A DNA stretch of 64,000 bases, taken from Alphaproteobacteria bacterium (GTDB lineage: Bacteria; Pseudomonadota; Alphaproteobacteria; UBA828). Where the stretch lies: assembly GCA_963667785.2 (NCBI GenBank), contig CAXXMU010000001.1, forward strand, positions 256,001-320,000. Direction: 5' to 3'. Of this stretch, positions 35,982-59,982 are shown in pieces. Numbering within the stretch: position 1 is the first letter of the stretch; every line of letters starts with the position of its first letter. Made by a program: the position numbers and the translations under genes. Under the pieces are notes generated by a model. That model was not told the DNA's origin. It searched no databases and worked only from the letters and a program-made list of their open reading frames with translations.

Positions 35982-35992
35982 GGCGTCTGCTC

Positions 35993-36592: not shown

Positions 36593-36602
36593 GGCGGCGG
36601 CC

Positions 36603-37790: not shown

Positions 37791-37887
37791 GTTCCGTGTT
37801 CTCCCGCGTTCCGTGGGCGCATGCTGCACCGCGGCACATTACATAGTCCCTGCCCTGGCGAATATCCAGCCCGCCCGGTGGCCCGCG

Positions 37888-39198
37888 TCAGACCTGGCCC
37901 TCGGCCGGCTTGTGGGTCAGCGCCACGCTGTTGGGCCTCCCCGGCAGGGAGAGCGCCGTCACCGCCGGCGGGGTACGTGCGACCACCTCGCCGCGGCGGA
38001 TCACCGCGAGCCGCGTCGCCCGCAGCCTGATCGCCTCCAGCGGGTCCGCGGCCTGGAGGACGACCATGTCGGCATGGCAGCCGGGCTCCAGCCCGTAGCC
38101 GTCCAGGTGCATGATCCTGGCGGGGTTCACCGTGATCGCGTCGAAGCAGGCCTTCACCTCGTCCGCCCCGAACATGCCCGCCACGTGCGAGCCCATGTGC
38201 GCGACCTCGAGCATGTCGGCGCTGCCATAGACGTACCACGGGTCCATCATGCAATCCTGGCCGAAGGCCAGCGTGATGCCGGCCTCCCTCAGCTCGGGCA
38301 CGCGCGTTATGCCGCGCCATTTCGGATAGCTGCCGTTGTTGTGTCCCCACGCCGCGATGTTGGTGAGCGGATTGGGAGTCACGCCGATCTCCGACTCCGC
38401 AATCAGCGGAATCAGCTTGCTGACGTAGTAGTTGTCCATGACGTGCATGGAGGCCAGGTGCGACGCCGTCACCCGCCCCTGGAGGCCGAGGCGGTGGGTC
38501 TCCCGGGAGAGCGTCTCGATGTGACGCGACATCGGGTCGTCGGTCTCGTCGCAGTGCATGTCGACGAGCAGCCCGCGCTCTGCGGCAATCTCCAACAGCT
38601 CGGTCACCGACGCGGTGCCGTCGGCCATCGTGCGCTCGAAGTGCGGAATGCCGCCGACCACCTCGACTCCCATGTCGAGCGCCCGCCGCAGGTGGTCCTG
38701 CGCGCCCGGGTAGCGGTAGTAGCCCATCTGCGGGAAGGCGATGAGCTGCAGGTCGATGTAGGGCGCGACCCGGCGCTTGACTTCGAGCAGCGCCTCCACG
38801 CCGGTCAGCCTCTCGTCGCAGACGTCGACATGGCTGCGAATCGCCTGGATTCCCTGGGCGATCGCCATGTCGCAATAGGTCATCGCCCGCTCGGCGACCG
38901 CCTCCGGAGTCAATTGGCGCTTCAGCTCGTCCCACAGATAGATGCCCTCGAAGAGGAGGCCGGACTGGTCGGGGCGCGGCAAGGCGTCGGTCAGAGGGCG
39001 CGCCAGCGTCGCATCCATGTGGAAGTGAGCGTCGATGAAGGGCGGCGTGACCAGCCGGTCCGTGGCGTCGATCTCCTGCCCGGCCTCGGCCTGCAGCGCG
39101 GGCTCCACGGCAACGATGCGCCCGTCCTGCACGCCGATGTCCACGCCGGCTCGTCCATCGGGCAGAGTGGCCCCGCGCACGATCAAGTCCATCGCCAT
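37888..39198 (-). CDS. Cytosine deaminase-like metal-dependent amidohydrolase
   Basis: DAHFHMD, GGIPHFE, HCDE, ASH, GQDCMMDPWY. Confidence 0.9.
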   Translation of the reverse strand: MAMDLIVRGATLPDGRAGVDIGVQDGRIVAVEPALQAEAGQEIDATDRLVTPPFIDAHFHMDATLARPLTDALPRPDQSGLLFEGIYLWDELKRQLTPEAVAERAMTYCDMAIAQGIQAIRSHVDVCDERLTGVEALLEVKRRVAPYIDLQLIAFPQMGYYRYPGAQDHLRRALDMGVEVVGGIPHFERTMADGTASVTELLEIAAERGLLVDMHCDETDDPMSRHIETLSRETHRLGLQGRVTASHLASMHVMDNYYVSKLIPLIAESEIGVTPNPLTNIAAWGHNNGSYPKWRGITRVPELREAGITLAFGQDCMMDPWYVYGSADMLEVAHMGSHVAGMFGADEVKACFDAITVNPARIMHLDGYGLEPGCHADMVVLQAADPLEAIRLRATRLAVIRRGEVVARTPPAVTALSLPGRPNSVALTHKPAEGQV

Positions 39199-39277
39199 GT
39201 CGTCTCTCCCGTTTCTGTTCCGGCCCGTTTCCGCTCTGCCCCGTCTCCCGCCTTGACGCGTAAAGTCCGGCGCCGCT

Positions 39278-40276
39278 CTACGCGTCGCGCCCCAGAAGGC
39301 GGCGGACGATGCGGCGCGCGGCGGCACCAGGCGTGAGCGTGCCTGCCGCGACCTCCGCTTCCAGCGCGTCCACCGCAGGCGCCAGCCGCTCGTCGGCGCG
39401 GAGCGTCGCCATCAGCGTGTCCTCGGCCTCGCGCCAGAGCCAGGCGCGCGCCTGCGCGGCCCGCTTCGCCTCCAGCGCGCCCGCCTGTGAGAGCGTCGCC
39501 CGGTGCCGCTCCACCGCGTTCGCGATCTCGTCGAGGCCGTGGCCCTCCAGCGACGAGCAGGCGATGACGCAGGGGGTCCACGGCCCCTCGCCGGCGTGGA
39601 GCGAGAGCGCGGCCTCGAAGTCCGCCGTGGCGTGGGCGGCAGGGCCCGCCAGCGCGCCGTCGGCCTTGGTGACGACGACGATGTCGGCGCGCTCCACGAC
39701 GCCGCGCTTGATCCCCTGCAGCTCGTCGCCGGCGCCCGGCTGCACCAGCAGCATGGTGAGGTCCACCATGTCGGCGACGGCGGCCTCGGACTGGCCGACG
39801 CCGACGGTCTCCACCATCACCAGGTCGAAGCCCGCCGCCTCGCAGGCGAGCATCACGTCGCGCGTGCGCCGTGCGACGCCGCCGAGCGTGCCGCCGGCGG
39901 GCGAGGCGCGGATGAAGCTCTGCTCGCTCCGGGCGAGCTCCGGCATGCGCGTCTTGTCGCCGAGGATCGAGCCGCCCGAGCGCGTGCTGGAGGGGTCGAT
40001 CGCGAGCACGGCAAGCCGGCGGCCGGCCGCGATCTGCCGGGTGCCGAAGGCCTCGATGAAGGTCGACTTGCCCACCCCCGGCGCGCCCGAGATGCCGAGC
40101 CTGACGGCCTTGCCGGAATGCGGCAGCAACGCCTGGAGCAGCGCCTCGGCCTCGGCGCGATCGGCCTCCCTGGTCGATTCGAGGAGGGTGATCGCCGCCG
40201 CGAGCGCCCGCCGGTCGCCCGCGAGAACCGCGTCGGCCGACGGCGCACGGTCGGCGGTGCCCTTGCTGCCCGTCAT
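39278..40276 (-). CDS. meaB: Methylmalonyl-CoA mutase-associated GTPase MeaB
   Basis: GAPGVGKST, DPSS..SGGSILGDKTRM, ETVGVGQSE, GDELQGIK. Confidence 0.96.
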   Translation of the reverse strand: MTGSKGTADRAPSADAVLAGDRRALAAAITLLESTREADRAEAEALLQALLPHSGKAVRLGISGAPGVGKSTFIEAFGTRQIAAGRRLAVLAIDPSSTRSGGSILGDKTRMPELARSEQSFIRASPAGGTLGGVARRTRDVMLACEAAGFDLVMVETVGVGQSEAAVADMVDLTMLLVQPGAGDELQGIKRGVVERADIVVVTKADGALAGPAAHATADFEAALSLHAGEGPWTPCVIACSSLEGHGLDEIANAVERHRATLSQAGALEAKRAAQARAWLWREAEDTLMATLRADERLAPAVDALEAEVAAGTLTPGAAARRIVRRLLGRDA

Positions 40277-44439: not shown

Positions 44440-45081
44440 TCACGCTCCCTCGCCGGCGCCGATCGCGTCCAGTCCCCAGGGGGTCCAGCCGTCCGCGCGG
44501 TCGCGCGCGAACAGCTCGATCCGGCGCGCGTCCGGGAACATCGCCTCGATGCGGTGGCGCACCTCGTCGGGCTTCCGCGAATGATTGCCGCGCTTCTCGC
44601 TCACGAGCTGGCGGACGTTGCGGGCGCCGCGCGGCGCCGGAATCCGCCCGTGCTTGAAGACGAGGCAGAGCTCGCACTGGCTGAGCGTATAGAAGCCAGG
44701 GTTGACGCGCTGCTTGTCCCAGACGAAGGCGACCGTGGCCCAGGCGAAGCCCCAGTGCTTGCCGAGCGCGATCGCCTGGTCGAGATGCGGGCTCGACGAC
44801 CACATGAAGAGCAGGCTGTCGCGCGCCCGGATGCGGGGGATGTCGAGCCCGGCGAGCGCCTCCAGCGTCACGGTGGGGTAGTGGCGCGCGGCCCCGCCGG
44901 TGTCCCCGCTGCCGGGCCCGGCGTGCTGAAGCTGCCCGCGATAGTCCCAGGGGGGATCGGCATAGATGATCTCGAACTGCGCCTTCGGCAGGGCGGGGAA
45001 TGCCGCCGCCTCGGCTGGCTGCGGAGTCCGCCGCTGCGCCGGCAGGGTAACGGGGGCCGCCCCCGGAAAGTGCCCGTCCAT
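44440..45081 (-). CDS. MT-A70 family (beta-class) N6-adenine methyltransferase
   Basis: [34 protein letters not shown]; alternative start at 45102. Confidence 0.9.
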
Positions 45082-45220
45082 CGTCTCGCGCCCTTGCGCC
45101 AAAGGTAGACGGCAGAGGCCGCCTGCCGCAAGGCGCGTGGCGCTGCCGCTCGCCGCGTCGATTGAAGGGCGGGCGGGCCTTCGGCATCATGCGCCGACGG
45201 CGCGCACGCGGAGGCGACCC

Positions 45221-46843
45221 ATGCACGCGACCATGATGGACTACCCGCTCACCCTCGCCCACTACCTGGAGCGGGCGGGCACGCTGCTCGGCGATCGCGA
45301 GATCGTCACCCGCCTGCCGGACAGGTCGGTGCACCGCTACCGCTTCGGCGATTTCCACCGCCGCGCGCGGCAGCTCGCCTCGGCGCTGGCCCGCGCGGGG
45401 CTGAAGCGGGGCGAGCCGGTGGCCACCATGAAGTGGAACAACTATCCGCATCAGGAGGCCTATTTCGGCGTGGCCTGCGCCGGCGGCGTGCTGCATACCC
45501 TCAACTTCCGCCTTCACCCGAACGACATAGCCTACATCGCCAACCACGCCGGCGACCGCTTCGTGATCGTGGACGACGTGCTGCTCCCGCTCTTCGAGAA
45601 GGTCCGGCCGGAGATCGCGGCCGAGCGCGTGTTCGTGGTGGCGCTCTCGGGCGCGCCGGTGCCGGCGGGCTACGAGAGCTACGAGGACCTGCTCGGGACC
45701 GGCGACGCCGACGACGACCTGCCCCGGCCGGAGGAGGGCGATGCCTGCGGCGTCTGCTACACCTCGGGCACCACCGGCAGGCCCAAGGGCGTCGTCTACT
45801 CGCACCGCGCGATGGTGCTCCACACCATGGCGATGTGCATGACCGAGCCCTTCGGGCTGAGCCAGAACGACACGATCATGCCGGTGGTGCCGATGTTCCA
45901 CGCCAATGCCTGGGGCCTGCCCTACGGCGCCGTCGCGTCCGGCGCCCGCATCGTCCTGCCCGGCCCCCATCTCGACCCGGTGAGCCTGCTCGATCTCGCC
46001 GAGGCCGAGGGGGTCACGTTCGCCGCCGGCGTGCCGACGATCTGGAACGGAATCCTCCAGGCGCTCGACGCCGAGCCCGACCGCTGGTCGCTCGCTGCGG
46101 GGCTGCGGACCGCAGTCGGCGGCTCGGCTGCGAGCGAGGCGATGATCCGCGGCTTCGACCGCCACGGCGTCCGCACCATCCACGCCTGGGGCATGACCGA
46201 GACCACGCCGCTCGGCAGCGCCGCGGTCCTGAAGTCGTCCATGGAGGCGCTCGACGAGGACACGCGCTACGACTACCGGGCGAAGCAAGGTATCGCCATG
46301 CCCTTCGTCGACATGCGGCTGATGAACGACGCCGGCATGGTGCCCAGGGACGGCGAGACCATGGGCGAGCTGCAGGTGCGCGGGCCCTGGGTCGCCGCCG
46401 CCTATCACGAGTCGGACGAGCTCGCCGACAAGTGGACGGACGACGGCTGGCTGCGAACCGGCGACGTCGCCACCATCGACGCCGAAGGGTTCATGAAGAT
46501 CACCGACCGCACCAAGGACCTGATCAAGTCCGGCGGCGAGTGGATCAGCTCGGTCGATCTGGAGAACGCGCTCATGGGCCACGATGCCGTGAGCGAGGCT
46601 GCGGTCATCGCGGTCCGCCACGCGAAGTGGGAGGAGCGCCCGCTCGCCGTCGTCGTGCTGAAGGAAGGCGCACAGGCGGACGCGGATGCGCTGCAGGGCC
46701 ACCTCGCCGGCCGCTTCGCCAAGTGGTGGCTGCCGGACGACTATGTCTTCGTGGACGAGATCCCGCGCACGTCCACCGGCAAGTTCCTCAAGTCGGCGCT
46801 GCGCGAGCGCTACGAGGAGCGGCTGGTGGCCGGCGACGGCTGA
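45221..46843 (+). CDS. Medium/long-chain acyl-CoA ligase (AlkK/DmdB-like)
   Basis: YTSGTTGRPKG, PMFHANAWG, WGMTE, TGD, KSGGEWISS, TSTGK. Confidence 0.93.
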   Translation: MHATMMDYPLTLAHYLERAGTLLGDREIVTRLPDRSVHRYRFGDFHRRARQLASALARAGLKRGEPVATMKWNNYPHQEAYFGVACAGGVLHTLNFRLHPNDIAYIANHAGDRFVIVDDVLLPLFEKVRPEIAAERVFVVALSGAPVPAGYESYEDLLGTGDADDDLPRPEEGDACGVCYTSGTTGRPKGVVYSHRAMVLHTMAMCMTEPFGLSQNDTIMPVVPMFHANAWGLPYGAVASGARIVLPGPHLDPVSLLDLAEAEGVTFAAGVPTIWNGILQALDAEPDRWSLAAGLRTAVGGSAASEAMIRGFDRHGVRTIHAWGMTETTPLGSAAVLKSSMEALDEDTRYDYRAKQGIAMPFVDMRLMNDAGMVPRDGETMGELQVRGPWVAAAYHESDELADKWTDDGWLRTGDVATIDAEGFMKITDRTKDLIKSGGEWISSVDLENALMGHDAVSEAAVIAVRHAKWEERPLAVVVLKEGAQADADALQGHLAGRFAKWWLPDDYVFVDEIPRTSTGKFLKSALRERYEERLVAGDG

Positions 46844-48591
46844 GGTTTCGGCGGCACGCGCGCGCCTTCCCGGCGCGCTGCTGTCGCGGCCTCGTCCACC
46901 TGCAGGGGGTCGCCCCGGAAAACCACGCCGAAGAGGCGCGCCGCCTCGTCCGCCGTGTAGTAGCCCCGCATCACGTCCCGCAGCACCAGCGCCGGGTCGC
47001 GCTCGCTCGCATTCCCGTAGCCGCCGCCGCCCGGCGTGGAGACGCGCACCGTGTCGCCGGGGCGGAGCGCGATCTCCTGGTCCTTGGAGAGATGCGGCGG
47101 CCGGTAGGACGTGCCGTCGGCGCGGATCACGTCCACGGTGTTGACCCCGCCGGGCTCGCCGCCCTGGGCGCCGTTCGGCCCGGTGCGGCCGTGGTCCATC
47201 ACCATCGAGGCGTTGGCGGCGCCCCGCCGGAGCGTGCACGCGTAGGTGACGCCGAAGCCGCCGCGCCAGCGGCCGGCCCCGCCCGAGCCCTCGTGCAGGG
47301 AATACTCCTGGAAGAGCACCGGGTACTTCTGCTCCATCACCTCGATGGGCTGCGACTTGGAGATGCCGATGGTCGAGCAGCCGTTGGTGAGCCCGTCGCC
47401 CGCCGGCGAGCCGCCGTAGCCGCCGCCGGTGAAGAGGTACATCACGAAATCCCGCGCCCGCGCGGGGTCGGTTCCGCCCACGGCGAAGTTGCCGGAGGTG
47501 CCGGCGGGCGCGGCGAAGAGGCGCTCGGGGATCGCCTGGGCCAGCGCGTCGAACACGGCCTCGGCGATGCGCTGGCTCACCTCCGCCGCGCAGCCCGAGA
47601 CCGGACGCGGGTACTCGGCATGGAGGAAGGTGCCTCGGGGCTCTTCGATGTGCAGCGGCTCGAACATGCCGGCGTTGATCGGCACGTCGGGGAAGACGTG
47701 GCGGATCGCGAGATAGATCGAGGACTTGGTGGTCGCCGCCACGCTGTTCATGGGGCCGGCGCAGGGCGGGCTCGAGCGCGCCATGTCGAAGTGGAGCTCG
47801 GTCCCCGCCACGCGCACCCGCATGTCGATGGTGAGCGGCTCGTTCACCACGCCGTCGGAATCGACCTGGGCGTGGCCGCGATAGGTGCCGTCGGGGATGG
47901 TCGCGATCTTGGCCCGCATCTGCTGCGCCGCGCGCCGGCGCATCTCGGCGATCACGTCCTCGACGAGCGCCGCGCCGTACTTGTCGAGCAGGGCCGTCAT
48001 CCGCCGCGCGCCCACCAGCAGCGCCGACGACTGGGCCTCGATGTCGCCGATGCGCTGCTCCGGCACGCGGATGTTGGAGAGGATGATGGAGAGGAGCTCC
48101 TCGTCGATCCTCCCCTCCTTGTAGAGCTTGACCGGCGGGAAGCGCAGGCCCTCCTGCACCACCTCGGTGGCGCGCGCCGAGAACCCGCCCGGCACCATGC
48201 CGCCGGTGTCCGGCCAGTGGCCTGTGTTGGAGAGCCAGGCGAAGTGCGCGCCCCGGTAGAAGAAGGGCATGGCGAAGCGCACGTCCATCAGGTGGGTGCC
48301 GCCGAGATAGGGGTCGTTGACGGCGAAGATGTCGCCCTCGCGCACGGTGGGCTTCGTGGCGATCAGATGCTCGGTCGAGAACTGCATCGTGCCGACGAAG
48401 ACCGGCAGCCCCAGCTCGCCCTGCGCGATGAGCTTGCCGTCCTCCTTCGCGTAGATGCCGTCCGAGCGGTCGAGTCCCTCGGAGATGACCGGGCTGAAGG
48501 CGGAGCGCACGAAGGCGAGGTCCATCTCGTTGCAGACCTGCTGCAGGCCGCTCTGCACCACGCCGAGGGTGATGGGATCGAGGCTGCTCAC
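46810..48591 (-). CDS. Hydantoinase B / oxoprolinase family subunit
   Basis: RSAFSPVI, NDPYLGGTHLMD, GHWPDTGG, QEGL, GAGRWRGG, TPGGGGYG. Confidence 0.95.
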   Translation of the reverse strand: MSSLDPITLGVVQSGLQQVCNEMDLAFVRSAFSPVISEGLDRSDGIYAKEDGKLIAQGELGLPVFVGTMQFSTEHLIATKPTVREGDIFAVNDPYLGGTHLMDVRFAMPFFYRGAHFAWLSNTGHWPDTGGMVPGGFSARATEVVQEGLRFPPVKLYKEGRIDEELLSIILSNIRVPEQRIGDIEAQSSALLVGARRMTALLDKYGAALVEDVIAEMRRRAAQQMRAKIATIPDGTYRGHAQVDSDGVVNEPLTIDMRVRVAGTELHFDMARSSPPCAGPMNSVAATTKSSIYLAIRHVFPDVPINAGMFEPLHIEEPRGTFLHAEYPRPVSGCAAEVSQRIAEAVFDALAQAIPERLFAAPAGTSGNFAVGGTDPARARDFVMYLFTGGGYGGSPAGDGLTNGCSTIGISKSQPIEVMEQKYPVLFQEYSLHEGSGGAGRWRGGFGVTYACTLRRGAANASMVMDHGRTGPNGAQGGEPGGVNTVDVIRADGTSYRPPHLSKDQEIALRPGDTVRVSTPGGGGYGNASERDPALVLRDVMRGYYTADEAARLFGVVFRGDPLQVDEAATAARREGARVPPKPQPSPATSRSS

Positions 48592-50627
48592 GGGCCGATC
48601 TCCACGATCAGGTTGCCGATGGCATCGAGGGATGCCCGGTTGCCCGGCTCGACGACGCTGGTGCAGTCGGTCTGCTGGATGATCGCCGGACCCTCGAAGC
48701 CGGCGCCGGCAGGGAGCCGCTCGCGGTCGTAGACCGGCGTCTCCTGCCAGCCGGCGGGGAACCAGACGCGGCGGGAGCCGACCACCGCCTCGCCCAGGGT
48801 CGCGGCCTGGCGCGCGCCCGCGAGCGCCGCGAGCGGCACCGCGGGCCGGGCGCCGATCACGGCGGTGTGGAGGTTGACGAGCACCGGGCGGATCGTGTCG
48901 AGCGCGACGGCGAAGCGCTCCCAGTATGCCGCCTCGAAGGCCTGCTGCAGCGCCTCGCGCGTCGCGTCGGGTCGCTCCACGGGCACCGTCAGCAGGTGGG
49001 TCTGCCCCTCGAACTGCATGTCGGCGCTGTGGTGGCAGGCGATGGCGCCGACCGCGACGCCCTCGTCCGCGATGGCTGCGCGCCCCTGCGCCGCCTGGCG
49101 TTCGAGGATCGCGCGCACGCCCGCCACGTCGACGTCCGCCAGCGGCGCGTTCACCGTGTTCACGAAGTCGTGGCGGATGTCGGCGGTGATGCAGCCGACG
49201 GCGCTGGTGATCCCCGGCCGGGCCGGGATCATCACGCGCGGGATGCCGAGCTCGGCAGCAAGCGCTGCGGCGTGCATGGGGCCGGCGCCGCCGAAGGCGA
49301 ACAGCACGAAGTCGCGCGGGTCGTGGCCGCGCGCGAGCGTCGCCATGCGGATCGCGCCGGCCATGCGGTCGTTGGCGATGCGGATCACCGCGGCCGCAGC
49401 ACCCTCGGCATCGAGGCCGAGCGGGCCGCCGACGGTCTCCGCGAACACGGCCCGCACGGCGCCCGCCGCGACCGGGGAGTCCACCGCCAGCAGCGAGTCC
49501 GGATCGAGCCGGCCGAGGATCAGGTTGGCGTCGGTGAGCGTCGGCCGCGCGCCGCCCCGGCCGTAGCAGATCGGCCCCGGCTGGGCGCCGGCGCTCTCCG
49601 GCCCCACCTGGAGCAGGCCGGCCTCGTCGATCCGCGCGATGCTGCCGCCGCCGGCGCCGACCGTGTGCACGTCCACCATGGGGACGTGGATCGGCATGCC
49701 GTGCTCCAGCTCCATCTCGGCCGTGACCGCCGGCACGCCCTCCAGCACAAGGCCCACGTCGGCGCTGGTGCCGCCGGTGTCGAAGGTGATCAGGTCGCGG
49801 CACCCGGCGGCGCGGCCGATGGCGGCGGCGGCCATGACGCCCGAGGCGGGGCCGGAGAGCACGGTGTTGACGGCCTTCGCCGCGGCCGAGCGGGCGGAGA
49901 CGCTGCCGCCGTTGCCCTGGATCACCAGCAGCTCGCGCCCGTAGCCGCGCGCGCCCAGCTCGCTCTCGAGCTGGTCGAGATAGCGGTGCAGCAGCGGCTG
50001 GACGCAGGCGTTCACCGCCGCGGCGACGCCGCGCTCGTACTCGCGGAACTCGGAGAGGATCGCGTGGCCGGCGGTGACGTGGCCGCCGGGCCAGCACTCG
50101 CGGGCGATGGCGAGCGCGCGCTCCTCGTGCCGGGGGTTCTTGTAGCTGTGCAGGAAGTGGATCACCAGCGAATCGCAGCCGGCGGCCTCCAGCGTCGTCA
50201 GCGCGGCGCGCACCGCGTCCTCGTCCAGCGGCACCAGCACCTCACCGGCGGCGTCCATGCGCTCCGGCACCTCGATGCGCAGCTCGCGCGGGATCAACGG
50301 CGTGAAGCTGCCGATGAGTCCGTAGGCGTGGGGCCGCGTGCGCCGGCCGAGCTCGAGGATGTCGCGGAAGCCCTGCGTCGTGATCAGGCCGCAGCGGCTG
50401 AGCTTGCGCTCGAGCAGCGCGTTGGTGGTGACCGTGGTGCCGTGAACGATGGCGGCGATGTCGGCGAAGGAGGCGGCGGCCCGGTCGAGCGCCGCGAGCA
50501 CGCCCGCTGCCTGGTTCGCCGGCGTCGACGGCACCTTGGCCAGGCGCACGGCGCCGGTCTCGGGCTCCACGAGGATGAGATCGGTGAAGGTTCCGCCGAC
50601 ATCCACGCCGACGACCGCGCCGCTCAT
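48588..50627 (-). CDS. Hydantoinase A / oxoprolinase family ATP-binding subunit
   Basis: DVGGTFTD, HGTTVTTNALLE, SGPASG, DTGGTS, GAGGGS, GPESAGAQPGP, FGGAG. Confidence 0.95.
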   Translation of the reverse strand: MSGAVVGVDVGGTFTDLILVEPETGAVRLAKVPSTPANQAAGVLAALDRAAASFADIAAIVHGTTVTTNALLERKLSRCGLITTQGFRDILELGRRTRPHAYGLIGSFTPLIPRELRIEVPERMDAAGEVLVPLDEDAVRAALTTLEAAGCDSLVIHFLHSYKNPRHEERALAIARECWPGGHVTAGHAILSEFREYERGVAAAVNACVQPLLHRYLDQLESELGARGYGRELLVIQGNGGSVSARSAAAKAVNTVLSGPASGVMAAAAIGRAAGCRDLITFDTGGTSADVGLVLEGVPAVTAEMELEHGMPIHVPMVDVHTVGAGGGSIARIDEAGLLQVGPESAGAQPGPICYGRGGARPTLTDANLILGRLDPDSLLAVDSPVAAGAVRAVFAETVGGPLGLDAEGAAAAVIRIANDRMAGAIRMATLARGHDPRDFVLFAFGGAGPMHAAALAAELGIPRVMIPARPGITSAVGCITADIRHDFVNTVNAPLADVDVAGVRAILERQAAQGRAAIADEGVAVGAIACHHSADMQFEGQTHLLTVPVERPDATREALQQAFEAAYWERFAVALDTIRPVLVNLHTAVIGARPAVPLAALAGARQAATLGEAVVGSRRVWFPAGWQETPVYDRERLPAGAGFEGPAIIQQTDCTSVVEPGNRASLDAIGNLIVEIGP

Positions 50628-50634
50628 GAAACGC

Positions 50635-51510
50635 TCATGCGGCGACGGAGGCGCGGCCTGCGCCACCGGCGTCCGCCGGCGCGAGCGCGCGGGTCTCGCC
50701 CTGGAGCGCGAGGCGGGCCGTCTCGATGAGGCCGGCGCGCTGCATCGCCCGCGCCTCCGCAAGCCCGGCATCCAGCGCCGCCGCTACGGCATGGGCGGGG
50801 AGCGGTCCCACCGCGACAATAACCAGTTGCATGCCCAGGTCGCTGTCCTCGCGAAGCGACACGGCCGGCGCGCGCTCGATGGCCGGATGGTCGAGCGTGA
50901 TCGCGTTGGCGATCAGCGTCGCCGCGGCGTCCGCCGCAGCCGCCGTCCGCGCCAGCACCGTGACCGCATCGGCGATGCCGAGCGAGAGCGAGCGCCCGCG
51001 CCAGCCCGACGTCGCCATGCCCCGTGCGGGTGCGTCCGCGCCGAGAGTGATCCGCCCGTCGAGTCCCGGCCGGTCGGGGTCGTTCACCACGCCCGCGGCG
51101 AGCGCGGTTCCAGCCGTGAGATGCACGGCGATGTCGCCGCCGTTGTTGGCGTAGGCGCGCGAAAGGCGGCGCCCAGCCGTCATGGCGGCCAGCACCTCGT
51201 CGGCGACGGCGCCGGCGACTGCCGCCATGGGCGTGACGAAGCGCGCCCGATGGGGCCAGCAGGCGTCCACCATGCGCCGCGCCACCGGGCCGCGCGGTGC
51301 AGGCCGCGTCTCGCCGAGGGGGCGGCGCAGCAGGGCGAGCTCGGCCACCAGGTCGCCCAGGATCGCGGCGAAGCATTCGCCCGCCTGGCGGTAGGCGGCG
51401 CCCACCTCCGCCGCCTCACCGAAGGCCTCGGCCACGATGTCGATCGGCCCGTGCTGCAGGTGCAGCCTGCGGCCGTCGCCCAGCATCGCGATGCGGGCCG
51501 TGCCGCTCAT
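50635..51510 (-). CDS. UPF0280 family, ApbE-like (putative flavin transferase)
   Basis: LHLQHGPID, TPMAAVAGAVAD, NNGGD, ATSG..GRSLSLGIADAVTV. Confidence 0.88.
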   Translation of the reverse strand: MSGTARIAMLGDGRRLHLQHGPIDIVAEAFGEAAEVGAAYRQAGECFAAILGDLVAELALLRRPLGETRPAPRGPVARRMVDACWPHRARFVTPMAAVAGAVADEVLAAMTAGRRLSRAYANNGGDIAVHLTAGTALAAGVVNDPDRPGLDGRITLGADAPARGMATSGWRGRSLSLGIADAVTVLARTAAAADAAATLIANAITLDHPAIERAPAVSLREDSDLGMQLVIVAVGPLPAHAVAAALDAGLAEARAMQRAGLIETARLALQGETRALAPADAGGAGRASVAA

Positions 51511-52982
51511 CGCGGCCCGCGCTCCGGCAGCGGCCAGGGGTTCGCGGCGGGCCACGGCTCGGCCCTGTGGTCGGCATCCTCCAGCGCGTCCGCCAGCGGC
51601 ACGACGCGGTCGACGTGGCCGCCGAGGGCCGCGAACTCGGCCAGGCTGAGCGTGAACTCGATGGGGGCGACCAGCGCCGGCGTCGGCACGTAGCCGAAGG
51701 CATCGGCCGGCATGCGGGTCACGTCCACCATGAAGGTGATGCCGCCGCCGGGCCAGACGTGGACCGGCGCGCCGCCGGCGGTGACGCGGGTGAGCGCGTC
51801 CTTGATGGAGCGGGTGAGCCGCACCGGGTTCTCGGTGACGCCCGCGCGCAGGCTCCCGCCCGCGCCCGCCATGAAGAGCACGGTGCAGAGCGCGGGCTCG
51901 CAGTTCTCGGCGATGCGCTCCACCACGGTCTCGATCGCCGCCGGCATCGGCGCGGGCCGCGGCGTCAGCGTCTCGTCCAGCTCGAACCAGGCGGCGTCCT
52001 CGCCGGTGGTGGAGACCATGTGGAGCCTGAGCCCCGGCCACGCCTTCTTCGGGTCGATCCTCTCGATGATCTCCAGCGGATCGTCGATGTCGGTGGCGGC
52101 CCAGCCGCGCCCCTTGCGCGCCACCTGGAAGTAGCGCCCCGGCGTCGAGCGGCGACCCCGCACGCGGATTCCGCTGGGCGGCATGTCGAGGAAGCGCCCG
52201 GCCTGGTGCTCGGTGAGAACGCCGGTGATCTGGTCGTCGACCACGATCACCTCGTCGGCATGGCCGTGCCACTGGCGCGCGAACATGCCCATGGCGGCGG
52301 AGCCGCAGCCGGCCCGCATGCGCTCCTCGCGCTGGCCGTCCACCACCGGCGCCGCGCCCGCCTGGACGACGAGCTCCGCCCCGCCGTCCACCGTGAGCGT
52401 CGCCGGCTTGCCGTTGCAGAGGTCGAGCAGGGCGGCGCAGGTGACGGTGCCCTCGCGCTTGCTGCCGCCGGTGAAGTGCCGCACGCCGCCCAGCGAGAGC
52501 ATCTGCGAGCCGTACTCGGCCGTGGTGACGTGGCCGATGGGCTCGCCGTCGGCCCGCACCGAGGCCTGCTCGGGGCCGACGTGGCGGTCGGTGTCGATCT
52601 TCACCTTCACGCCGCAGTAGCTGAAGATTCCCTCCGAGACGACGGTCACCATGTCCACGCCCGCCGCTTCGCTCGCGATGATGAAGGGGGCGGGCTTGTA
52701 GTCGGGATAGGTGGTGCCGGAGCCGATGCCGGTCACGAAGCGCTCGCGCGGGGCGACCACGCCGCCGTCCCAGTCCTCCGCCCCGTCGAGGAAAGGCACC
52801 AGCGCGTCCGCACGCTCGGTGACGAGCAGCGGGTCCACGCGGGTCAGCGTGCCGCTGACATTGGCGTAGCGGTCGCAGGCGCCGACCTTGCCCTCGCGTA
52901 TGCGGCAGAGCACCGGGCAGGCGTCGCAGCGGATGATGGAGGCGCCGTCCCTGGCCGCGCGCCCAGCCTTCTGCTCGGTCAC
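51507..52982 (-). CDS. 6-hydroxynicotinate reductase-like Fe-S flavoprotein
   Basis: N-terminal CDACPVLC..GACDRY, TTYPDYKPAPF, EGIFSYC, MRAGCGSA, STPGRYF, GSLRAG, WPGGGI. Confidence 0.85.
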   Translation of the reverse strand: MTEQKAGRAARDGASIIRCDACPVLCRIREGKVGACDRYANVSGTLTRVDPLLVTERADALVPFLDGAEDWDGGVVAPRERFVTGIGSGTTYPDYKPAPFIIASEAAGVDMVTVVSEGIFSYCGVKVKIDTDRHVGPEQASVRADGEPIGHVTTAEYGSQMLSLGGVRHFTGGSKREGTVTCAALLDLCNGKPATLTVDGGAELVVQAGAAPVVDGQREERMRAGCGSAAMGMFARQWHGHADEVIVVDDQITGVLTEHQAGRFLDMPPSGIRVRGRRSTPGRYFQVARKGRGWAATDIDDPLEIIERIDPKKAWPGLRLHMVSTTGEDAAWFELDETLTPRPAPMPAAIETVVERIAENCEPALCTVLFMAGAGGSLRAGVTENPVRLTRSIKDALTRVTAGGAPVHVWPGGGITFMVDVTRMPADAFGYVPTPALVAPIEFTLSLAEFAALGGHVDRVVPLADALEDADHRAEPWPAANPWPLPERGPR

Positions 52983-55747
52983 GGGCCGGCCTCCCGCTCC
53001 CTGAGCGCCCGGCGCAGCCGGTGGGGCAGGGCGGGCACCCGGGTGACCCGCACGCCCGTGGCGTGGCGGATGGCGCCGAGGATGGCCGGCGCGGTCGGCA
53101 CCAGGCCCGGCTCGCCCACGCCCTTGGCGCCGAAGGGGCCGAGAGGCTCGGGGTCCTCGACGATGATGACCTCGATCTCCGGCACGTCGCCGATGGTCGG
53201 GATCAGATAGTCGTGCAGGTTCTCGGTCCGGCCCGGCAGATACTCCTCCATCAGCGCGAGCCCGATGCCCTGGGCGATCCCGCCCTCGATCTGGCCCTCC
53301 ACCTGGGTCGGGTTGATGGCGCGGCCGACATCGTGCGCGGCATGGATGCGGACGGGCGTCACGGTTCCGAGCTCGGTGTCCACGTCGACCACGGCGATCT
53401 GCGCGCCGAACGCGTAGGTCGCGTAGGGCTTGCCCTGGCCCTTGGCGTCGAGCGCGGTGGTCGGCGGGTCGAAGCGGCCCGTGCCCTCCAGCACCACGCC
53501 CGCCGCATCGGCCTTCAGCCGGCCGAGGTCGATCTCCGTCCGCCGCGCGCCGTCGCGTACCGTCACGCGCCCGGCCGCGAGCTCGATGCGTGCGCCGTCG
53601 CCGGCATTGGCCTCGCGCAGGATCGCCGCGCGCAGGGCGGCGCCGGCAAGCGCGGCCGCCTTGCCGGAGACGAAGGTCTGGCGCGAGGCGGAGGTCTTGC
53701 CGGCGTCCTCGGTCCAGTCGGTGTCGCCGATCACCTGGGCGATCCGGTCCGCCGCCACGCCGAGGGCATCGGCGCAGATCTGGGCGAGGATCGTGGTCGA
53801 GCCCTGGCCGATATCGACCGCGCCGTTGTAGAGGGTGAGCCGGCCCTCGCGGTCGAGGGCGACGCGCATCGAGGACGGGTTGCTGAGCGCGGTGTTGCCG
53901 ATGCCGTACCACATGCAGCCGATGCCGGCGCCGCGCCGCAGCGGGCCGCCCTGCCGGTTGGCCTGCGCGGCGTCCTCGAGCGCGCGCTGCCAGCGGGCCG
54001 CGAGCGCTTCCAGGCAGGGGGCGAGCCCGGCGCTCGCCTCCAGCACCTGGCCCGTCGCGGTCGCATCGCCGACACGGATCGCGTTCTTCAGGCGCATCTC
54101 CAGCCGGTCCATGCCGAGCCCGTCCGCGAGGTCGTCCATCAGCGCCTCGTGGGCGATGGCGGCCTGGGGCACGCCGAAGCCGCGGAAGGCACCGGCGGGC
54201 GGCCCGTTGGTATAGAAGGCCCGGCCGCGCGCCGAGACGTGAGGCACGGCGTAGGGGCCCGAAGCGTGGATTGGCACGCGGCTCGCCACGGTCGGCCCCC
54301 AGGAGGCGTAGGCGCCGGTGTCGAAGGTGGCATCGAACGCGACCGCCTGCAGCCTGCCGTCGGAATCGCAGCCGAAGCGCGCCTCGATCGCCGTGGGATG
54401 GCGCTTGGGGCTCGCCATCATGCTCTCGGGCCGCTCGTAGACGCAGGCGACCGGCTTGGCCGTGAGCCAGGCGGCGAGCGCCGTGAGCGGCTGGACCGAG
54501 ACGTCGAGCTTGCCGCCGAAGCCGCCGCCGCAGGCGCTCGGCACGATCCGCACTTGCGTGGGCGCGAGGCCCAGCACCTCGGCCGTCGAGTCCCGGTTCA
54601 TCACCGGCGTCTGGGTCGAGACGAAGAGCTCGACTCGCCCGCCTGCCCGCCTCGCCCAGCCGGCCTCGGGCTCGATGTAGGCGTGCTCGACGAACGCGGT
54701 CTCGAAGCGTCCCCCGGCCGTCACCGCCGCACCCGCCAGCGCTGCTTCCGCGTCCCCGCGCTCGACCCCGCCCTCGATCAGGCGGTTGCCCTCGGCGTCA
54801 TCGTGGACGAGCGGCGCGGCGGGCGCGCGGGCCTCGTCCAGGCCGTGCACGGCCGGCAGCGGCTCGTAGGCGATCGGCAGGTCCGCGTCGCGCAGCGCCG
54901 TCACCGCCTCGCGCGTGCCCACCAGCGCCGCGACGGGATCGCCCCGGTAGCGCACGAGACCCTCGGCCAGCACCGGCTGGTCCCGCAGGTCGGGGTAGAT
55001 GCCGACACGGTTGTAGGGCACGTCGGCGGCGGTAAGCACGCGCTCCACGCCGGGCCGGGCGGCGGCCACCGCCTCCAGGTCGCCGAGGGTGACTCGCGCC
55101 GAGTCATGAGGCGAGCGGACGATCCTGAGCCAGAGCGCGTCGGCCGGCACGGCGTCGGCGCCGTAGCGCTCGGCGCCGGTGAGCTTGGGCATGCCGTCCG
55201 GCTTCGGCATGCGGGCGCCGACGGCGGCGCCGGCAGGGGGTGCCGCGAGCGGCAGCGGGCCGTCGCCCGCCGCGTCCAGCACCGCCGCCACGATCTTGCG
55301 ATAGCCCGTGCAGCGGCAGAGGACGCCGCCGAGGCCGTCCATCACCTCCGCCGGGCGGGGGCGGGGAGAGGCGCGCAGCAGTTCCGTCGCGGCGATCAGC
55401 ATGCCGGGCGTGCACGCGCCGCATTGCGCCGCGCCGTGGCGCAGGAAGGCCCGCTGCAGGCGGTTCAGCCGGCCGTTCGCGGCAAGCCCTTCCACGGTGG
55501 TCACGTGGCGCCCTGCGGCCTGGGCCAACGACACCATGCAGCTACAGACCTGTTCGCCGTCGAGCAGCACCGTGCAGGCGCCGCAGTCGCCGGCGTTGCA
55601 GCCGACCTTGGTCCCGGTCAGGCCGAGATCGTCGCGCAGCGCATCGGCGAGGCGACGGAGCGGCGGCGCGGCGACGGCGACCTCGCGCCCGTTGACCGTG
55701 AACGCGGTGGTGCCGTCGCTCGCGGCGCACGTGCCGTTCCCGCTCAC
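52979..55747 (-). CDS. Xanthine oxidase-family molybdo-hydroxylase with fused 2x[2Fe-2S] and Mo-binding subunits (nicotinate dehydrogenase-like)
   Basis: GCNAGDCGAC..C, QCGACTPG, LCRCTGY, GGGFGGK, AFRGFG, GAKGVGE. Confidence 0.9.
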   Translation of the reverse strand: MSGNGTCAASDGTTAFTVNGREVAVAAPPLRRLADALRDDLGLTGTKVGCNAGDCGACTVLLDGEQVCSCMVSLAQAAGRHVTTVEGLAANGRLNRLQRAFLRHGAAQCGACTPGMLIAATELLRASPRPRPAEVMDGLGGVLCRCTGYRKIVAAVLDAAGDGPLPLAAPPAGAAVGARMPKPDGMPKLTGAERYGADAVPADALWLRIVRSPHDSARVTLGDLEAVAAARPGVERVLTAADVPYNRVGIYPDLRDQPVLAEGLVRYRGDPVAALVGTREAVTALRDADLPIAYEPLPAVHGLDEARAPAAPLVHDDAEGNRLIEGGVERGDAEAALAGAAVTAGGRFETAFVEHAYIEPEAGWARRAGGRVELFVSTQTPVMNRDSTAEVLGLAPTQVRIVPSACGGGFGGKLDVSVQPLTALAAWLTAKPVACVYERPESMMASPKRHPTAIEARFGCDSDGRLQAVAFDATFDTGAYASWGPTVASRVPIHASGPYAVPHVSARGRAFYTNGPPAGAFRGFGVPQAAIAHEALMDDLADGLGMDRLEMRLKNAIRVGDATATGQVLEASAGLAPCLEALAARWQRALEDAAQANRQGGPLRRGAGIGCMWYGIGNTALSNPSSMRVALDREGRLTLYNGAVDIGQGSTTILAQICADALGVAADRIAQVIGDTDWTEDAGKTSASRQTFVSGKAAALAGAALRAAILREANAGDGARIELAAGRVTVRDGARRTEIDLGRLKADAAGVVLEGTGRFDPPTTALDAKGQGKPYATYAFGAQIAVVDVDTELGTVTPVRIHAAHDVGRAINPTQVEGQIEGGIAQGIGLALMEEYLPGRTENLHDYLIPTIGDVPEIEVIIVEDPEPLGPFGAKGVGEPGLVPTAPAILGAIRHATGVRVTRVPALPHRLRRALREREAGP

Positions 55748-56589
55748 ATCATGCTCCCGAGCTCGGCGAGCGTGCGCGCCGTCAGCGTCCGTGCCGCATC
55801 GAGGCGATAGGCAGCGGAACCGCGCGCATCGTCGAGCGGCGCAAGCGGCGCCATGTGCGCGTCCGTCACGGCCCGGCCGAGCGATTCGTCGCAGTTGCGG
55901 CCGAGGAGCGCCTCCTCCAGCGCCGGCAGGCGGCGCGCCACCGGCGAGCAGGCGCCGACCGCGACCGCGGCGCGCACGATGCGGCCGTCCGCGTCCGTCT
56001 CCAGCGCCGCCGCCGCCATGACGATCGAGATCACCAGGTAGCGCCGGGCGCCGAGCTTGAGGAAGTGCCCGCGCGCCCGCTCCGCAGCGGGCCTGGGCAC
56101 GCGCACCGCCAGCATGAGCTGGTCCGGCGCGAGCGCCGTCTCGCGGTTGCCGCGGATGAAGGCGGCGAGCGGCATGGTCTCCCGCCGCTCGTGCGAGGCG
56201 AGCTCCACCTCGGCGCCGAGGCTGAGCAGCACCGGCACACCGTCGGCGGCGGGCGAGGCGTTGCAGAGATTGCCGCAGAGCGTGCCGGCGTTCTGCACCT
56301 GGCGGCCGCCGATCTCGAGCGCCGCCAGCTTGAGGCCGTCGAACCAGGGGGGCAGGTCGGCCCGGACGATATCGGTCCAGGTCGCGAGCGCAGGAATGCG
56401 CCAGTGGTCCGCGCGCTCCTCGATCGCGCGCATCGAGTCGAGCGCGGTGATGTCGAGGACGGGCTCGTCGAGCGGCTTGCCCACCCGCGCCGGGTAGAAG
56501 TCGGTGCCGCCGGCCAGCACCGTCAGCCGCCGGCTGCCGAGCGCCGCCAGCGCATCGTCGAGGGCGGTGGGACGCAGGTAGTCCGGCAT
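55744..56589 (-). CDS. FAD-binding subunit of the Mo-hydroxylase
   Basis: AGGTD, IGGRQVQNAGTLCGN..NASPAAD, FLKLGAR, RGSAAYR. Confidence 0.92.
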   Translation of the reverse strand: MPDYLRPTALDDALAALGSRRLTVLAGGTDFYPARVGKPLDEPVLDITALDSMRAIEERADHWRIPALATWTDIVRADLPPWFDGLKLAALEIGGRQVQNAGTLCGNLCNASPAADGVPVLLSLGAEVELASHERRETMPLAAFIRGNRETALAPDQLMLAVRVPRPAAERARGHFLKLGARRYLVISIVMAAAALETDADGRIVRAAVAVGACSPVARRLPALEEALLGRNCDESLGRAVTDAHMAPLAPLDDARGSAAYRLDAARTLTARTLAELGSMM

Positions 56590-56608
56590 CACGGCAGCCT
56601 CATCTCGC

Positions 56609-56626
56609 TTTCCATGATACCGGAAA
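56609..56626. promoter_or_regulatory. Candidate operator overlapping a -10-like box of the Mo-hydroxylase operon
   Basis: TTTCC-ATGATACC-GGAAA inverted repeat; the minus strand contains TATCAT; about 20 nt upstream of the ATG. Confidence 0.45.
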
Positions 56627-56685
56627 TGCCGGCTCTCCACGCCCGGCGGCCGTATCCGGCCGGGGCGAGGCCCGGCGCGGCTGCG

Positions 56686-57321
56686 TCAGGCGCCGGGGTC
56701 GGGGAGGCGCGCCCCGTAGAGCCATGGCTGGGCGGCCCTCTGCCTCGCCTCGAAGGCGTCGATCTCGGCGGCCCTGGCGAGCGTGATGCCGATATCGTCG
56801 AGCCCGTTCAGCAGCCGGTGCTTGCGGAAGGGCTCGATCTCGAAGGCGACGGTCTCGCCGTTCGAGCGCGTGATGGTCTGGGCTTCCAGGTCCACCGCCA
56901 TCCGGCAGGTCTGCGCGTTGCCGGCGTCGGCCGTCAGCGTGTTCGTGTCATCCTCGGGCAGCGCGACGAGCAGGATGCCGTTCTTGACGCAGTTGTTGAA
57001 GAAGATGTCGGCGAAGCTCGGCGCGATCACGCAGCGGATGCCGAAGTCCTCGAGCGCCCAAGGCGCGTGCTCGCGGCTCGACCCGCAGCCGAAGTTCTGG
57101 CCGGCGACAAGGATGCAGGCCTCGTTCCAGGGCGCCCGGTTGAGGACGAAGTCCGGAACCGGGCGGTCCTCCATGTCGTAGCGGAAGTCGTGGAAGAGGC
57201 CCTTGCCGAGCCCGGCACGGCTGATCGCGGTGAGGTACTGCTTGGGGATGATCTGGTCGGTATCGACGTTGATCATCGGCAGCGCCGCCGCCGGGCCCGA
57301 GAGGGTCGTGAAGGTGCGCAT
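56686..57321 (-). CDS. leuD: 3-isopropylmalate dehydratase small subunit
   Basis: [31 protein letters not shown]. Confidence 0.92.
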
Positions 57322-57333
57322 GACGGGCCCTCC

Positions 57334-58758
<1,425 letters not shown>

Positions 58759-58781
58759 CCTCCGGCGCCGGCGGCGCGCGG

Positions 58782-59198
58782 TCACTCGGTGGGCGCGGCC
58801 TCTTCGCTCGTCCGGGCAGCGGCCTTCCTGGCGCCGCGGTCGTCCCGCTTCTCGCGGATCCGCGCCGCCTTGCCGCGCAGGCCGCGCAGGTAGTAGAGCT
58901 TGGCGCGGCGCACCGCCCCCCGCTTCACCACCTCGATCTTCGCGATGCGCGGCGAATGGAGCGGGAAGACCCTCTCCACCCCCTCGCCGTAGGAGATCTT
59001 GCGGACCGTGAAGGAGGAGTTGAGGCTGCGGTTGCGCCGCGCGATGCAGACGCCCTCGAACACCTGCACCCGCTCGCGCGAGCCTTCCACCACCTTGACG
59101 TGGACGCGGAGGGTATCGCCGGGGGCGAACGAGGGGACCTCCCGCGCCTCCGTGAGCTTCTCCACGGCCTCGGCGTTCAACTGCTCGATCATGTTCAC
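58782..59198 (-). CDS. rplS: 50S ribosomal protein L19
   Basis: [37 protein letters not shown]. Confidence 0.98.
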
Positions 59199-59202
59199 GG
59201 CA

Positions 59203-59982
59203 CTATCCTCGCGTATCCTGGCGCGTCGCGCCTGTGGGCGCGCCCGCACAGCGCCGCGCCTGGTGACGCGCCCAGAGATCGGCGCGTCGCGTTCTGGTCA
59301 CCTGCTCCGCCTGCGCCCGCCGCCAGGCATCGACGGCGGCATGATCGCCGGAGAGGAGCACCTCCGGCACGGCCCGGCCCTCGAAGAGGCGCGGGCGGGT
59401 GTAGTGCGGATACTCCAGCAGGTCGTCCTCGAAGCTCTCCTCGACCAGCGAGGCGGGCCGGCCCACCACGCCGGGCAGCAGCCGCACGCAGGCGTCGATC
59501 ACCGCCATCGCCGCGATCTCCCCGCCCGAGAGCACGTAGTCGCCGACGCTGAGCTCGGCAACGCCACGGCCTTCCAGCACACGCTCGTCGACTCCCTCGA
59601 AACGGCCGCAGACCAGCAAGATGCCGGGGCCGTTCGCCAATTCCTTCACCCGGTCCTGAGCGAGCGGCGCACCGCGCGGCGAAAGCAGGAAGCGCGGCAC
59701 ATCGCCCGCCGCCGGCTGCACCGAATCGATGGCCGCTGCCAGGACATCGGCGCGCATGACCATGCCCGCCCCGCCGCCGAACGGGTGATCGTCGACGGTG
59801 CCGTGTTTATCGCGCGCGAAGCGGCGGATGTCCACCGTTTCCAGCCGCCAGAGGCCGGAATCCAGGCTGCGGCCCGCCAGCGCGGTGCCGAGAGGGCCGG
59901 GAAAGACCTCGGGAGAGAGCGTGAGCACATGAGCGCACCACGGCGCGCCCGTCCGTCCGCCCGCCTGCCCGCCTGCCGTCAC
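59203..59982 (-). CDS. trmD: tRNA (guanine37-N1)-methyltransferase
   Basis: [39 protein letters not shown]. Confidence 0.97.

Follow-up and report, generated by a model that had tools for sequence, protein, structure and literature searches.

Reductive degradation of nicotinate, in the outline given in PMC3511419, runs from nicotinate dehydrogenase through 6-hydroxynicotinate reductase (Hnr) to enamidase, and a locus that pairs putative counterparts of the first two enzymes with hydantoinase-type proteins raises the question of how the reduced ring would be opened there. The locus lies in a 64,000-nucleotide (nt) stretch, here called the window, of contig CAXXMU010000001.1 from an alphaproteobacterium of the UBA828 lineage (GenBank assembly GCA_963667785.2). 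Six co-oriented minus-strand genes, extending from position 46810 to approximately 56600, encode, head to tail, an FAD subunit, a fused 2Fe-2S/molybdenum (Mo) hydroxylase, an Hnr-family protein (hereafter also called Hnr), a UPF0280 protein, HyuA, and HyuB. No enamidase gene was found in the operon, either by a Pfam domain scan of its proteins or by an enamidase query of the genome. A preliminary description of this DNA had noted the missing enamidase and suggested that the HyuA/HyuB pair (HyuAB) provides an ATP-dependent ring-opening step. The first statement was borne out by the scan and the query, and the second is supported by the either/or distribution of the two enzymes and by catalytic motifs, the enzymatic role itself being a prediction from sequence. 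HyuAB is therefore proposed as the probable ATP-dependent opener of the ring of 1,4,5,6-tetrahydro-6-oxonicotinate (THON), replacing enamidase, and the operon would most likely represent the upper part of a reductive nicotinate pathway. The putative exchange of enamidase for HyuAB appears to be common, and comparative genomics supports it well. In the literature searched, no paper linking hydantoinase-type genes to nicotinate or THON was found; older key papers lay outside the reach of that search.

Enamidase or HyuAB in genomes with Hnr

An even sample of the Alphaproteobacteria, comprising 401 genomes, was searched for orthologs of the three proteins, using identity cut-offs of ≥63% for HyuB and ≥69% for enamidase. 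Hnr was present in 64 genomes, with 39 carrying a HyuB ortholog only, 25 an enamidase ortholog only, and none both or neither. An enamidase ortholog was detected in a single one of the 337 Hnr-less genomes. Thirty-five of the 39 HyuB-type genomes had no enamidase-family match at an E value of ≤1e−60. HyuB was encoded ≤20 kb from hnr in 19 of the HyuB-type genomes; 9 others had the two genes more widely spaced on one contig, and the remaining 11 had them on different contigs. The either/or pattern therefore extends to genomes in which the two genes are unlinked.

The same pattern was seen at closer range. The ORFs of 80 loci carrying close relatives of the window Hnr (64 to 93% identity) were clustered. 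The nearest relatives were in Rhodospirillales metagenome assemblies (L001 to L003), with an Hnr 93% identical to that of the window. Hnr, the hydroxylase, and UPF0280 were orthologous (54 to 93% identity) to genes in the 80 loci, across which the core order FAD, FeS/Mo, Hnr, UPF0280 was kept. Enamidase (ORF cluster 8, a 398-amino-acid [aa] amidohydrolase whose representative matched PDB 2vun over its full length at 4.1e−112) was found in 21 loci and HyuA in 19, and enamidase and HyuA/HyuB never occurred together in one locus. All other recurrent gene clusters were found with both the enamidase and the HyuAB forms; common companions included AA_synth (PF06684), a Liv-type ABC system, MarR, a family-III CoA-transferase, and a short-chain dehydrogenase/reductase (SDR). 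The most reduced form of the cluster was that of the window and L001 to L003, which were without AA_synth, the Liv-type ABC system, and MarR. A search of the whole 98%-complete genome returned no AA_synth gene, and the best ABC transporter match (52 to 58% identity) was at C1:782064-786764, approximately 470 kb from the operon.

The whole genomes behind these loci, which had been chosen through Hnr, were also searched. Enamidase matches were bimodal, at 68 to 100% or 36 to 43% identity, with two intermediates (52% and a partial match of 57%), while matches to the window HyuB were at 65 to 90%, 57 to 61% (a sister group), or 34 to 43%. Counting the upper modes, which began at 65% for HyuB and 68% for enamidase, 35 genomes had enamidase only, 35 had HyuB only, 2 had only HyuA or HyuB fragments at contig ends, 1 had both, and 7 had neither. 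The seven last were fragmentary assemblies, and two of them held the intermediate enamidase-like matches. In the single genome with both enzymes (G042), the enamidase gene was located on a separate contig and had no hnr genes around it. That hyuAB and the enamidase gene might exclude each other among hnr clusters had been put forward as a prediction, and such exclusion was seen at both the locus and the whole-genome level.

Trees were used to assess whether the two states reflect one ancient split. On an Hnr tree of 81 rows, at least 11 changes between the HyuAB and enamidase states were counted. The class-sample Hnr tree, with 61 rows after one frameshifted (G119) and two partial (G363 and G453) Hnr sequences had been left out, gave 13 or more changes, with a minimum of 7 forced by starred branches. 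The exchange is therefore repeated, not a single split. In phylogenetically independent contrasts within the class sample, HyuB and enamidase changed in opposing directions in 7 of 7 (sign test, P = 0.0156). Sister Hnr sequences had opposite partners, for example in L041 and L054, which argues for an unchanged role of Hnr in the two settings, with the exchange confined to the enzyme that follows.

These trees also bear on a different reading of the operon, namely, that its substrate is a different N-heterocycle (for example, a substituted pyridine or related azine) and that HyuAB opens the lactam of that route. The preliminary description had raised a similar possibility, naming substituted pyridines and more stable lactams. 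Such a route would be compatible with the hydroxylase, which fell under all NCBIfam equivalog cut-offs, with a HyuB pocket that is unlike that of caprolactamase and in which, in an alignment read by eye, there is no obvious residue for binding a carboxylate, with the lack of the transporter and regulator genes of published clusters, and with the assignment of substrates in HyuAB-type clusters by homology. However, separate Hnr clades would be expected under such a route, and the Hnr proteins of the two types instead interleave on both trees, with sister pairs having opposite partners; the Liv-type ABC transporter, MarR, AA_synth, CoA-transferase, and SDR genes are likewise common to both types. 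Another substrate thus appears unlikely, and the earlier suggestion found no support. Because the Hnr proteins interleave and the other cluster genes are common, the two cluster types are taken to share the same substrate, and replacement of enamidase by HyuAB at the THON step is the preferred explanation.

The orthology thresholds were fixed after the bimodal distributions had been seen, and the gap for HyuB was narrow (63% versus 61%); for these reasons, a HyuB tree was built. The Hnr-associated proteins formed one clade (support, 99*) of 23 rows, 12 of which, including the window copy, were physically linked to hnr. The borderline sequence G216 fell inside this clade, and the 57 to 61% group formed a neighboring one. 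Three rows (G128, G327, and G244b), which had been mis-extracted by the longest-ORF rule and had absurd branch lengths, were disregarded. The HyuB family has 32 copies in the source genome, and the operon copy is the only one of them in the Hnr-associated clade.

The source assembly (98% complete, 14 contigs) was also searched for an enamidase elsewhere. No ortholog of the Hnr-linked type was found; the search did, however, return one enamidase-family paralog, at C5:436291-437439 (L085:9298-10482), that was 40% identical to the Hnr-linked type and matched 2vun over its full length at 3.1e−93. This paralog is the basis of a further alternative, in which it would open THON and HyuAB would be a 5-oxoprolinase or other lactamase that merely lies downstream of the Hnr route; the 31 other HyuB-family copies in the genome, from which it follows that the family serves many substrates, could be cited in its favor. 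The neighbors of the C5 paralog nevertheless belong to another context, comprising an HpaB-type flavin monooxygenase, an isochorismatase, a MaoC hydratase, a B12-binding radical-SAM protein, a betaine-type ABC transporter, and a Mo-bisPGD oxidoreductase. Paralogs of this kind (39 to 43% identity) accompanied either cluster type, also occurred in one Hnr-less genome (G447), and were missing from the 35 HyuB-type genomes mentioned above; these included all three sampled genomes of the same family, which kept hnr and hyuB. HyuB orthologs, in turn, were present in 39 of the 64 Hnr genomes versus 3 of the 337 others, and hyuA begins 7 nt past the UPF0280 stop codon. Given its unrelated neighbors and scattered occurrence, the C5 paralog is read as part of another pathway, and a HyuAB without a role in the Hnr route is highly improbable. 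The preliminary description had named a true enamidase elsewhere in the genome, together with a lack of conserved hnr-hyuAB linkage, as one outcome that would speak against it; what was found was the 40%-identity paralog only and a conserved association.

The C5 genes may form a separate catabolic cluster for an N-heterocycle or a betaine-like compound. The HyuB family is itself extensive in this 4.1-Mb genome, with 31 further tblastn matches longer than 500 aa (e.g., C1:1044053, C1:1048946, C2:581652, and C6:701824); some copies form near-identical pairs, which may reflect the 6.6% contamination of the assembly. The closest paralog of the operon HyuA and HyuB (55 and 61% identity, respectively) is a fused 1,255-aa HyuA-HyuB ORF at C1:1041971-1045738 (L093:7972-11739). 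It adjoins genes for a D-2-hydroxyacid dehydrogenase, an EamA transporter, and an Fe-alcohol dehydrogenase, with another HyuA/HyuB pair next to it, and its clade comes mostly from Hnr-less genomes.

Family assignment and predicted chemistry of HyuAB

HyuA contains the Hydant_A_N, Hydantoinase_A, and Hydant_A_C domains, and HyuB matched Hydantoinase_B (PF02538) at 6.3e−160. As set out in the portion of PMC8453981 that describes the family, ATP-dependent lactamases are recognized by their ATP-site motifs, three of which lie in the A subunit (DxGGTxxD, DxGGT, and GxxPGP), and by a metal site in the B subunit that is made up of Asp-His-Asp-His. In caprolactamase, alanine substitution at two ATP-site aspartates and at each of the four metal ligands left almost no activity or none. 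The motifs are present in HyuA as DVGGTFTD, DTGGT, and GAQPGP at residues 9, 283, and 347, and HyuB residues D41, H100, D103, and H125 align to D41, H99, D102, and H124 of CapB. The best PDB matches of HyuA were 7hk5 (5.5e−134) and 6yra_A (1.2e−116), and HyuB matched 6yra_B at 5.8e−82. The nearest solved relatives of the pair were accordingly N-methylhydantoinase (7HK5) and caprolactamase (6YRA), well ahead of acetophenone and acetone carboxylases, and a domain scan of the operon and its neighbors revealed no additional carboxylase subunit genes. These comparisons point to a HyuAB of the hydrolase rather than the carboxylase type.

HyuAB resembles the caprolactamase CapAB of Pseudomonas jessenii (6YRA) in its two subunits, all Pfam domains, the ATP-site motifs, and the Asp-His-Asp-His site. 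The two are not equivalogs, however, since the CapA and CapB models NF050156 and NF050157 scored 507.3 and 328.5 bits, respectively, and did not reach their cut-offs of 1000, and the vicinal Cys pair of CapB is absent from HyuB. The genomic partner also differs, being Hnr and not a caprolactam or oxoproline pathway, and the lactam predicted as substrate is unsaturated and bears a carboxylate. The family also takes in 5-oxoprolinase and N-methylhydantoinase, and six-membered lactams are among its substrates, as indicated by the account of a valerolactam-hydrolyzing enzyme system in PMC11033972.

The following steps, including nicotinate and THON as substrates, the need for ATP, the reactions themselves, and what becomes of the enamine, are inferred. 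The FAD and FeS/Mo subunits of the hydroxylase would convert nicotinate to 6-hydroxynicotinate, which Hnr, as an iron-sulfur reductase for which the ApbE-like UPF0280 protein is the probable maturation factor, would reduce to the six-membered cyclic enamide THON. If the pair works as caprolactamase does, ATP would serve HyuA to activate the lactam oxygen of THON, and the activated lactim would be hydrolyzed at the metal site of HyuB. The enamine product would then lose ammonia to give 2-formylglutarate, which is also the product of enamidase. On this basis, the HyuA/HyuB proteins of the Hnr-associated clade are moderately likely to represent a new activity, an ATP-hydrolyzing THON (enamide δ-lactam) hydrolase that would have displaced enamidase repeatedly and define the majority form of the reductive nicotinate pathway in Alphaproteobacteria, judging by the Hnr genomes sampled.

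HyuAB might instead act at a different step, either by ATP-dependent activation of 6-hydroxynicotinate, as the 2-pyridone, before its reduction or through carboxylase-type chemistry, with the ring being opened spontaneously or by another enzyme. 6-Hydroxynicotinate is itself a cyclic amide tautomer, which would suit such an activation. The family also includes ATP-dependent carboxylases, and caprolactamase requires bicarbonate for a reason described as not understood in the relevant part of PMC8453981. A different step nevertheless seems quite unlikely: the either/or relationship is with enamidase specifically, as a ring-opening replacement predicts, and an extra activation would not make enamidase dispensable. 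The lack of an additional carboxylase subunit gene and the hydrolases found as best structural relatives also argue against it.

Several points weigh against the assignment of HyuAB to THON ring opening. Nicotinate is a putative substrate by homology only. Tyr136 of CapB, the proposed acid/base of caprolactamase, corresponds to Phe137 in HyuB, and the HyuB pocket, as read by eye from the alignment, has no obvious cationic partner for the THON carboxylate. Transporter, MarR, and AA_synth genes, which are frequent in related clusters, are missing from the operon. On sequence alone, the C5 paralog might still be a THON hydrolase, and G042 holds both enzymes. Only 19 of the 39 HyuB-type genomes encode HyuB ≤20 kb from hnr, its orthologs in Hnr-less genomes are exceptions to the pattern, and, in Reyranella-like genomes, hyuA is inside the hnr cluster and hyuB is elsewhere, beside a different Mo hydroxylase. 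To these can be added the post hoc thresholds and narrow HyuB gap noted above and the contrast test on the 80-locus tree, which was underpowered, counted seven incomplete genomes as "neither," and gave a median P value of 0.0625. Finally, contigs over positions 44900 to 58900, from one RNA library, a sponge metatranscriptome (X20), and from three other runs, were short and mostly 90 to 95% alike, and none bridged the genes.

If HyuAB does open THON, a distinct and widespread clade of the large, mostly unassigned hydantoinase/oxoprolinase family would gain a substrate and a pathway. Reconstructions of nicotinate catabolism would be corrected in more than half of the sampled alphaproteobacteria with Hnr, which would otherwise seem to be without a ring-opening step. 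The exchange would further offer a clear example of one bond for which an ATP-consuming enzyme of two subunits has taken over from a metal hydrolase, and has done so independently many times. The ATP cost would make ring opening irreversible, which could aid the scavenging of low nicotinate, for example by sponge symbionts, and an ATP-dependent hydrolase of a functionalized six-membered lactam would be of interest in biocatalysis.

Operon structure and the remaining proteins

The genes of the operon are listed in Table 1. Their identities had been given in the preliminary description and were confirmed by the ORFs and by Pfam and NCBIfam profile matches, with Hnr being placed in its family through named homologs, and the junctions, reported as four 4-nt overlaps and one 7-nt gap, matched the sequence exactly. 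The six genes are thus tightly coupled in a compact unit. GTGA overlaps occur at 55744-47, 52979-82, and 48588-91, and an ATGA overlap occurs at 51507-10; the gap (GCGTTTC) separates the UPF0280 stop codon (50635-37) from the hyuA ATG at 50627. The upstream end, placed previously at 56626, needed correction: this position is not a codon boundary in the frame of the FAD gene, for which the earliest possible start is the GTG at 56640. Homolog N termini align from M18 of the longest ORF, and the start is therefore likely the ATG at 56589.

Table 1. Genes of the hnr-hyuAB operon, in order of transcription
Predicted product	Position	Strand	Length (aa)	Basis or remark
FAD-binding subunit, xanthine-dehydrogenase-family molybdenum hydroxylase	55744..56589	-	281	Length from ATG 56589; ORF open up to GTG 56640
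Fused 2Fe-2S/molybdopterin hydroxylase subunit, putative nicotinate dehydrogenase	52979..55747	-	922	
Hnr-family protein, putative 6-hydroxynicotinate reductase	51507..52982	-	491	Homolog names, conserved Cys
UPF0280 protein, ApbE-like fold	50635..51510	-	291	NF003322, structure model
HyuA-type ATP-binding subunit of putative ATP-dependent lactamase	48588..50627	-	679	Pfam domains, motifs
HyuB-type metal-dependent hydrolytic subunit of putative lactamase	46810..48591	-	593	Hydantoinase_B

The FAD subunit matched FAD_binding_5 (PF00941, 9.7e−35) and CO_deh_flav_C (PF03450, 3.6e−16), and its partner carries the Fer2, Fer2_2, Ald_Xan_dh_C, MoCoBD_1, and MoCoBD_2 domains in one chain. As every NCBIfam equivalog remained below its cut-off for the latter, it is not assigned to a named xanthine dehydrogenase or CO dehydrogenase. 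Its orthologs (54 to 90% identity) adjoin hnr in most of the 80 related loci.

Hnr and UPF0280 are each encoded by one copy in the genome. Hnr has more than 8,000 homologs, the best 120 of which are 70 to 94% identical to it, and several are called 6-hydroxynicotinate reductase by NCBI or JGI, these being annotation names. Eight conserved cysteines are consistent with an Fe-S protein. Searches with the Hnr sequence returned no Pfam domain above cut-off (GCV_T_C was subthreshold, at 21.9 versus 25.9 bits), no NCBIfam family, and no PDB sequence match, and a structure model (32 sequences; pLDDT, 72.4) had no Foldseek match at an E value of ≤0.001, the best VIA Z score being 4.7. The modeled fold thus appears unmatched in these searches, which does not show a new fold. 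Some database homologs (P0007, P0010, and P0113), which are 604 to 782 aa in length and contain PF27030, may be Hnr-UPF0280 fusions or gene calls that run through the 4-nt overlap.

The UPF0280 protein scored 359.8 bits against NF003322 (cut-off, 290) and matched the sequence of PDB 2o34 at 3.8e−08. Its structure model (pLDDT, 94) gave Foldseek matches to 2o34 at 1e−10 and then to the flavin transferases FmnB, Ftp, and ApbE at 5e−05 to 1e−02, with TM scores of approximately 0.4 to 0.5. The gene follows hnr in nearly all of the 80 loci, and, from the model, a role as a flavin-transferase-type maturation factor for Hnr is possible. The Hnr of Eubacterium barkeri has a covalently bound flavin, which would fit such a role.

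The operon and the nicotinate fermentation of E. barkeri share a xanthine-dehydrogenase-family Mo hydroxylase followed by Hnr, with the same predicted intermediates, 6-hydroxynicotinate and THON, whereas HyuA and HyuB stand in place of the E. barkeri enamidase (PDB 2VUN). The enzymes of that fermentation were reportedly treated by Alhapel et al. in 2006, and the hydroxylase is said to have four subunits, in contrast to the two genes (FAD and fused FeS/Mo) of the operon. The UPF0280 gene is present in the operon, and the later fermentation genes are absent from it. Among proteobacteria, the section of PMC3511419 on gene clusters assigns an enamidase-bearing cluster to nicotinate degradation in Azorhizobium caulinodans ORS571 (AZC_2790-2804), Bradyrhizobium japonicum (blr3818-3830), Rhodopseudomonas palustris HaA2, and strain SG-6C, with a Bradyrhizobiaceae Hnr homolog that is 42% identical to the E. 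barkeri protein. The window Hnr shares 68% identity with its counterpart in a metagenome-assembled genome of R. palustris (L079), and the operon differs from the Azorhizobium/Bradyrhizobium-type cluster in having HyuAB instead of enamidase.

Variation among related clusters and surroundings of the operon

The split placement of hyuA and hyuB in the Reyranella-like genomes is unusual. In L030, L033, L035, L042, and L086 to L089, the hyuB ortholog (70 to 71% identity) is far off or on another contig, and the Mo hydroxylase gene adjoining the Reyranella-like hyuB is in divergent orientation, with a product only 29% identical to the window hydroxylase. Five other loci (L007, L016, L027, L041, and L054) have 2-oxoacid:ferredoxin oxidoreductase-like genes (POR_N, POR, and PFOR_II, with two partner ORF clusters) adjoining hnr. 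This enzyme could be a low-potential electron donor for Hnr; no such genes were found near the window operon.

The window has a G+C content of 70 to 75%. Upstream of the operon and on the same strand are ffh, rimM, trmD, and rplS, followed by two aconitase-family genes. The latter were considered as counterparts of the E. barkeri dimethylmalate dehydratase, which was ruled out, as they are leuC and leuD by scores above curated cut-offs and follow ffh-rimM-trmD-rplS. Approximately 93 nt separate the leuD stop codon from the start of the FAD gene. At the other end, a convergent acyl-CoA ligase gene (44966-46843, plus strand) overlaps the 3′ end of hyuB by 34 nt, with a methylmalonyl-CoA mutase gene and an ABC exporter beyond it. 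L001 and L002 share these flanks. A scan of positions 46000 to 59500 returned no promoter-like sites and one terminator-like site, on the wrong strand, both below shuffled counts.

The minus-strand regions 34830-37838 and 37888-39411, 7 to 12 kb downstream of the operon, encode a thiolase, an acyl-CoA dehydrogenase, and a cytosine-deaminase-like amidohydrolase, for which no link to the operon was found. The amidohydrolase (37888-39411) was considered as a hidden enamidase and rejected, as it is cytosine-deaminase-like (NF005748, 708 bits; cut-off, 438) and was not matched by the enamidase query.

Among the sequencing runs X1 to X20, those with 30 to 45% of the sampled words of the operon include several labeled sponge metagenome. 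Contigs over the operon region represented many related strains, 90 to 99% alike. The run labels and the related strains fit a sponge-associated lineage.

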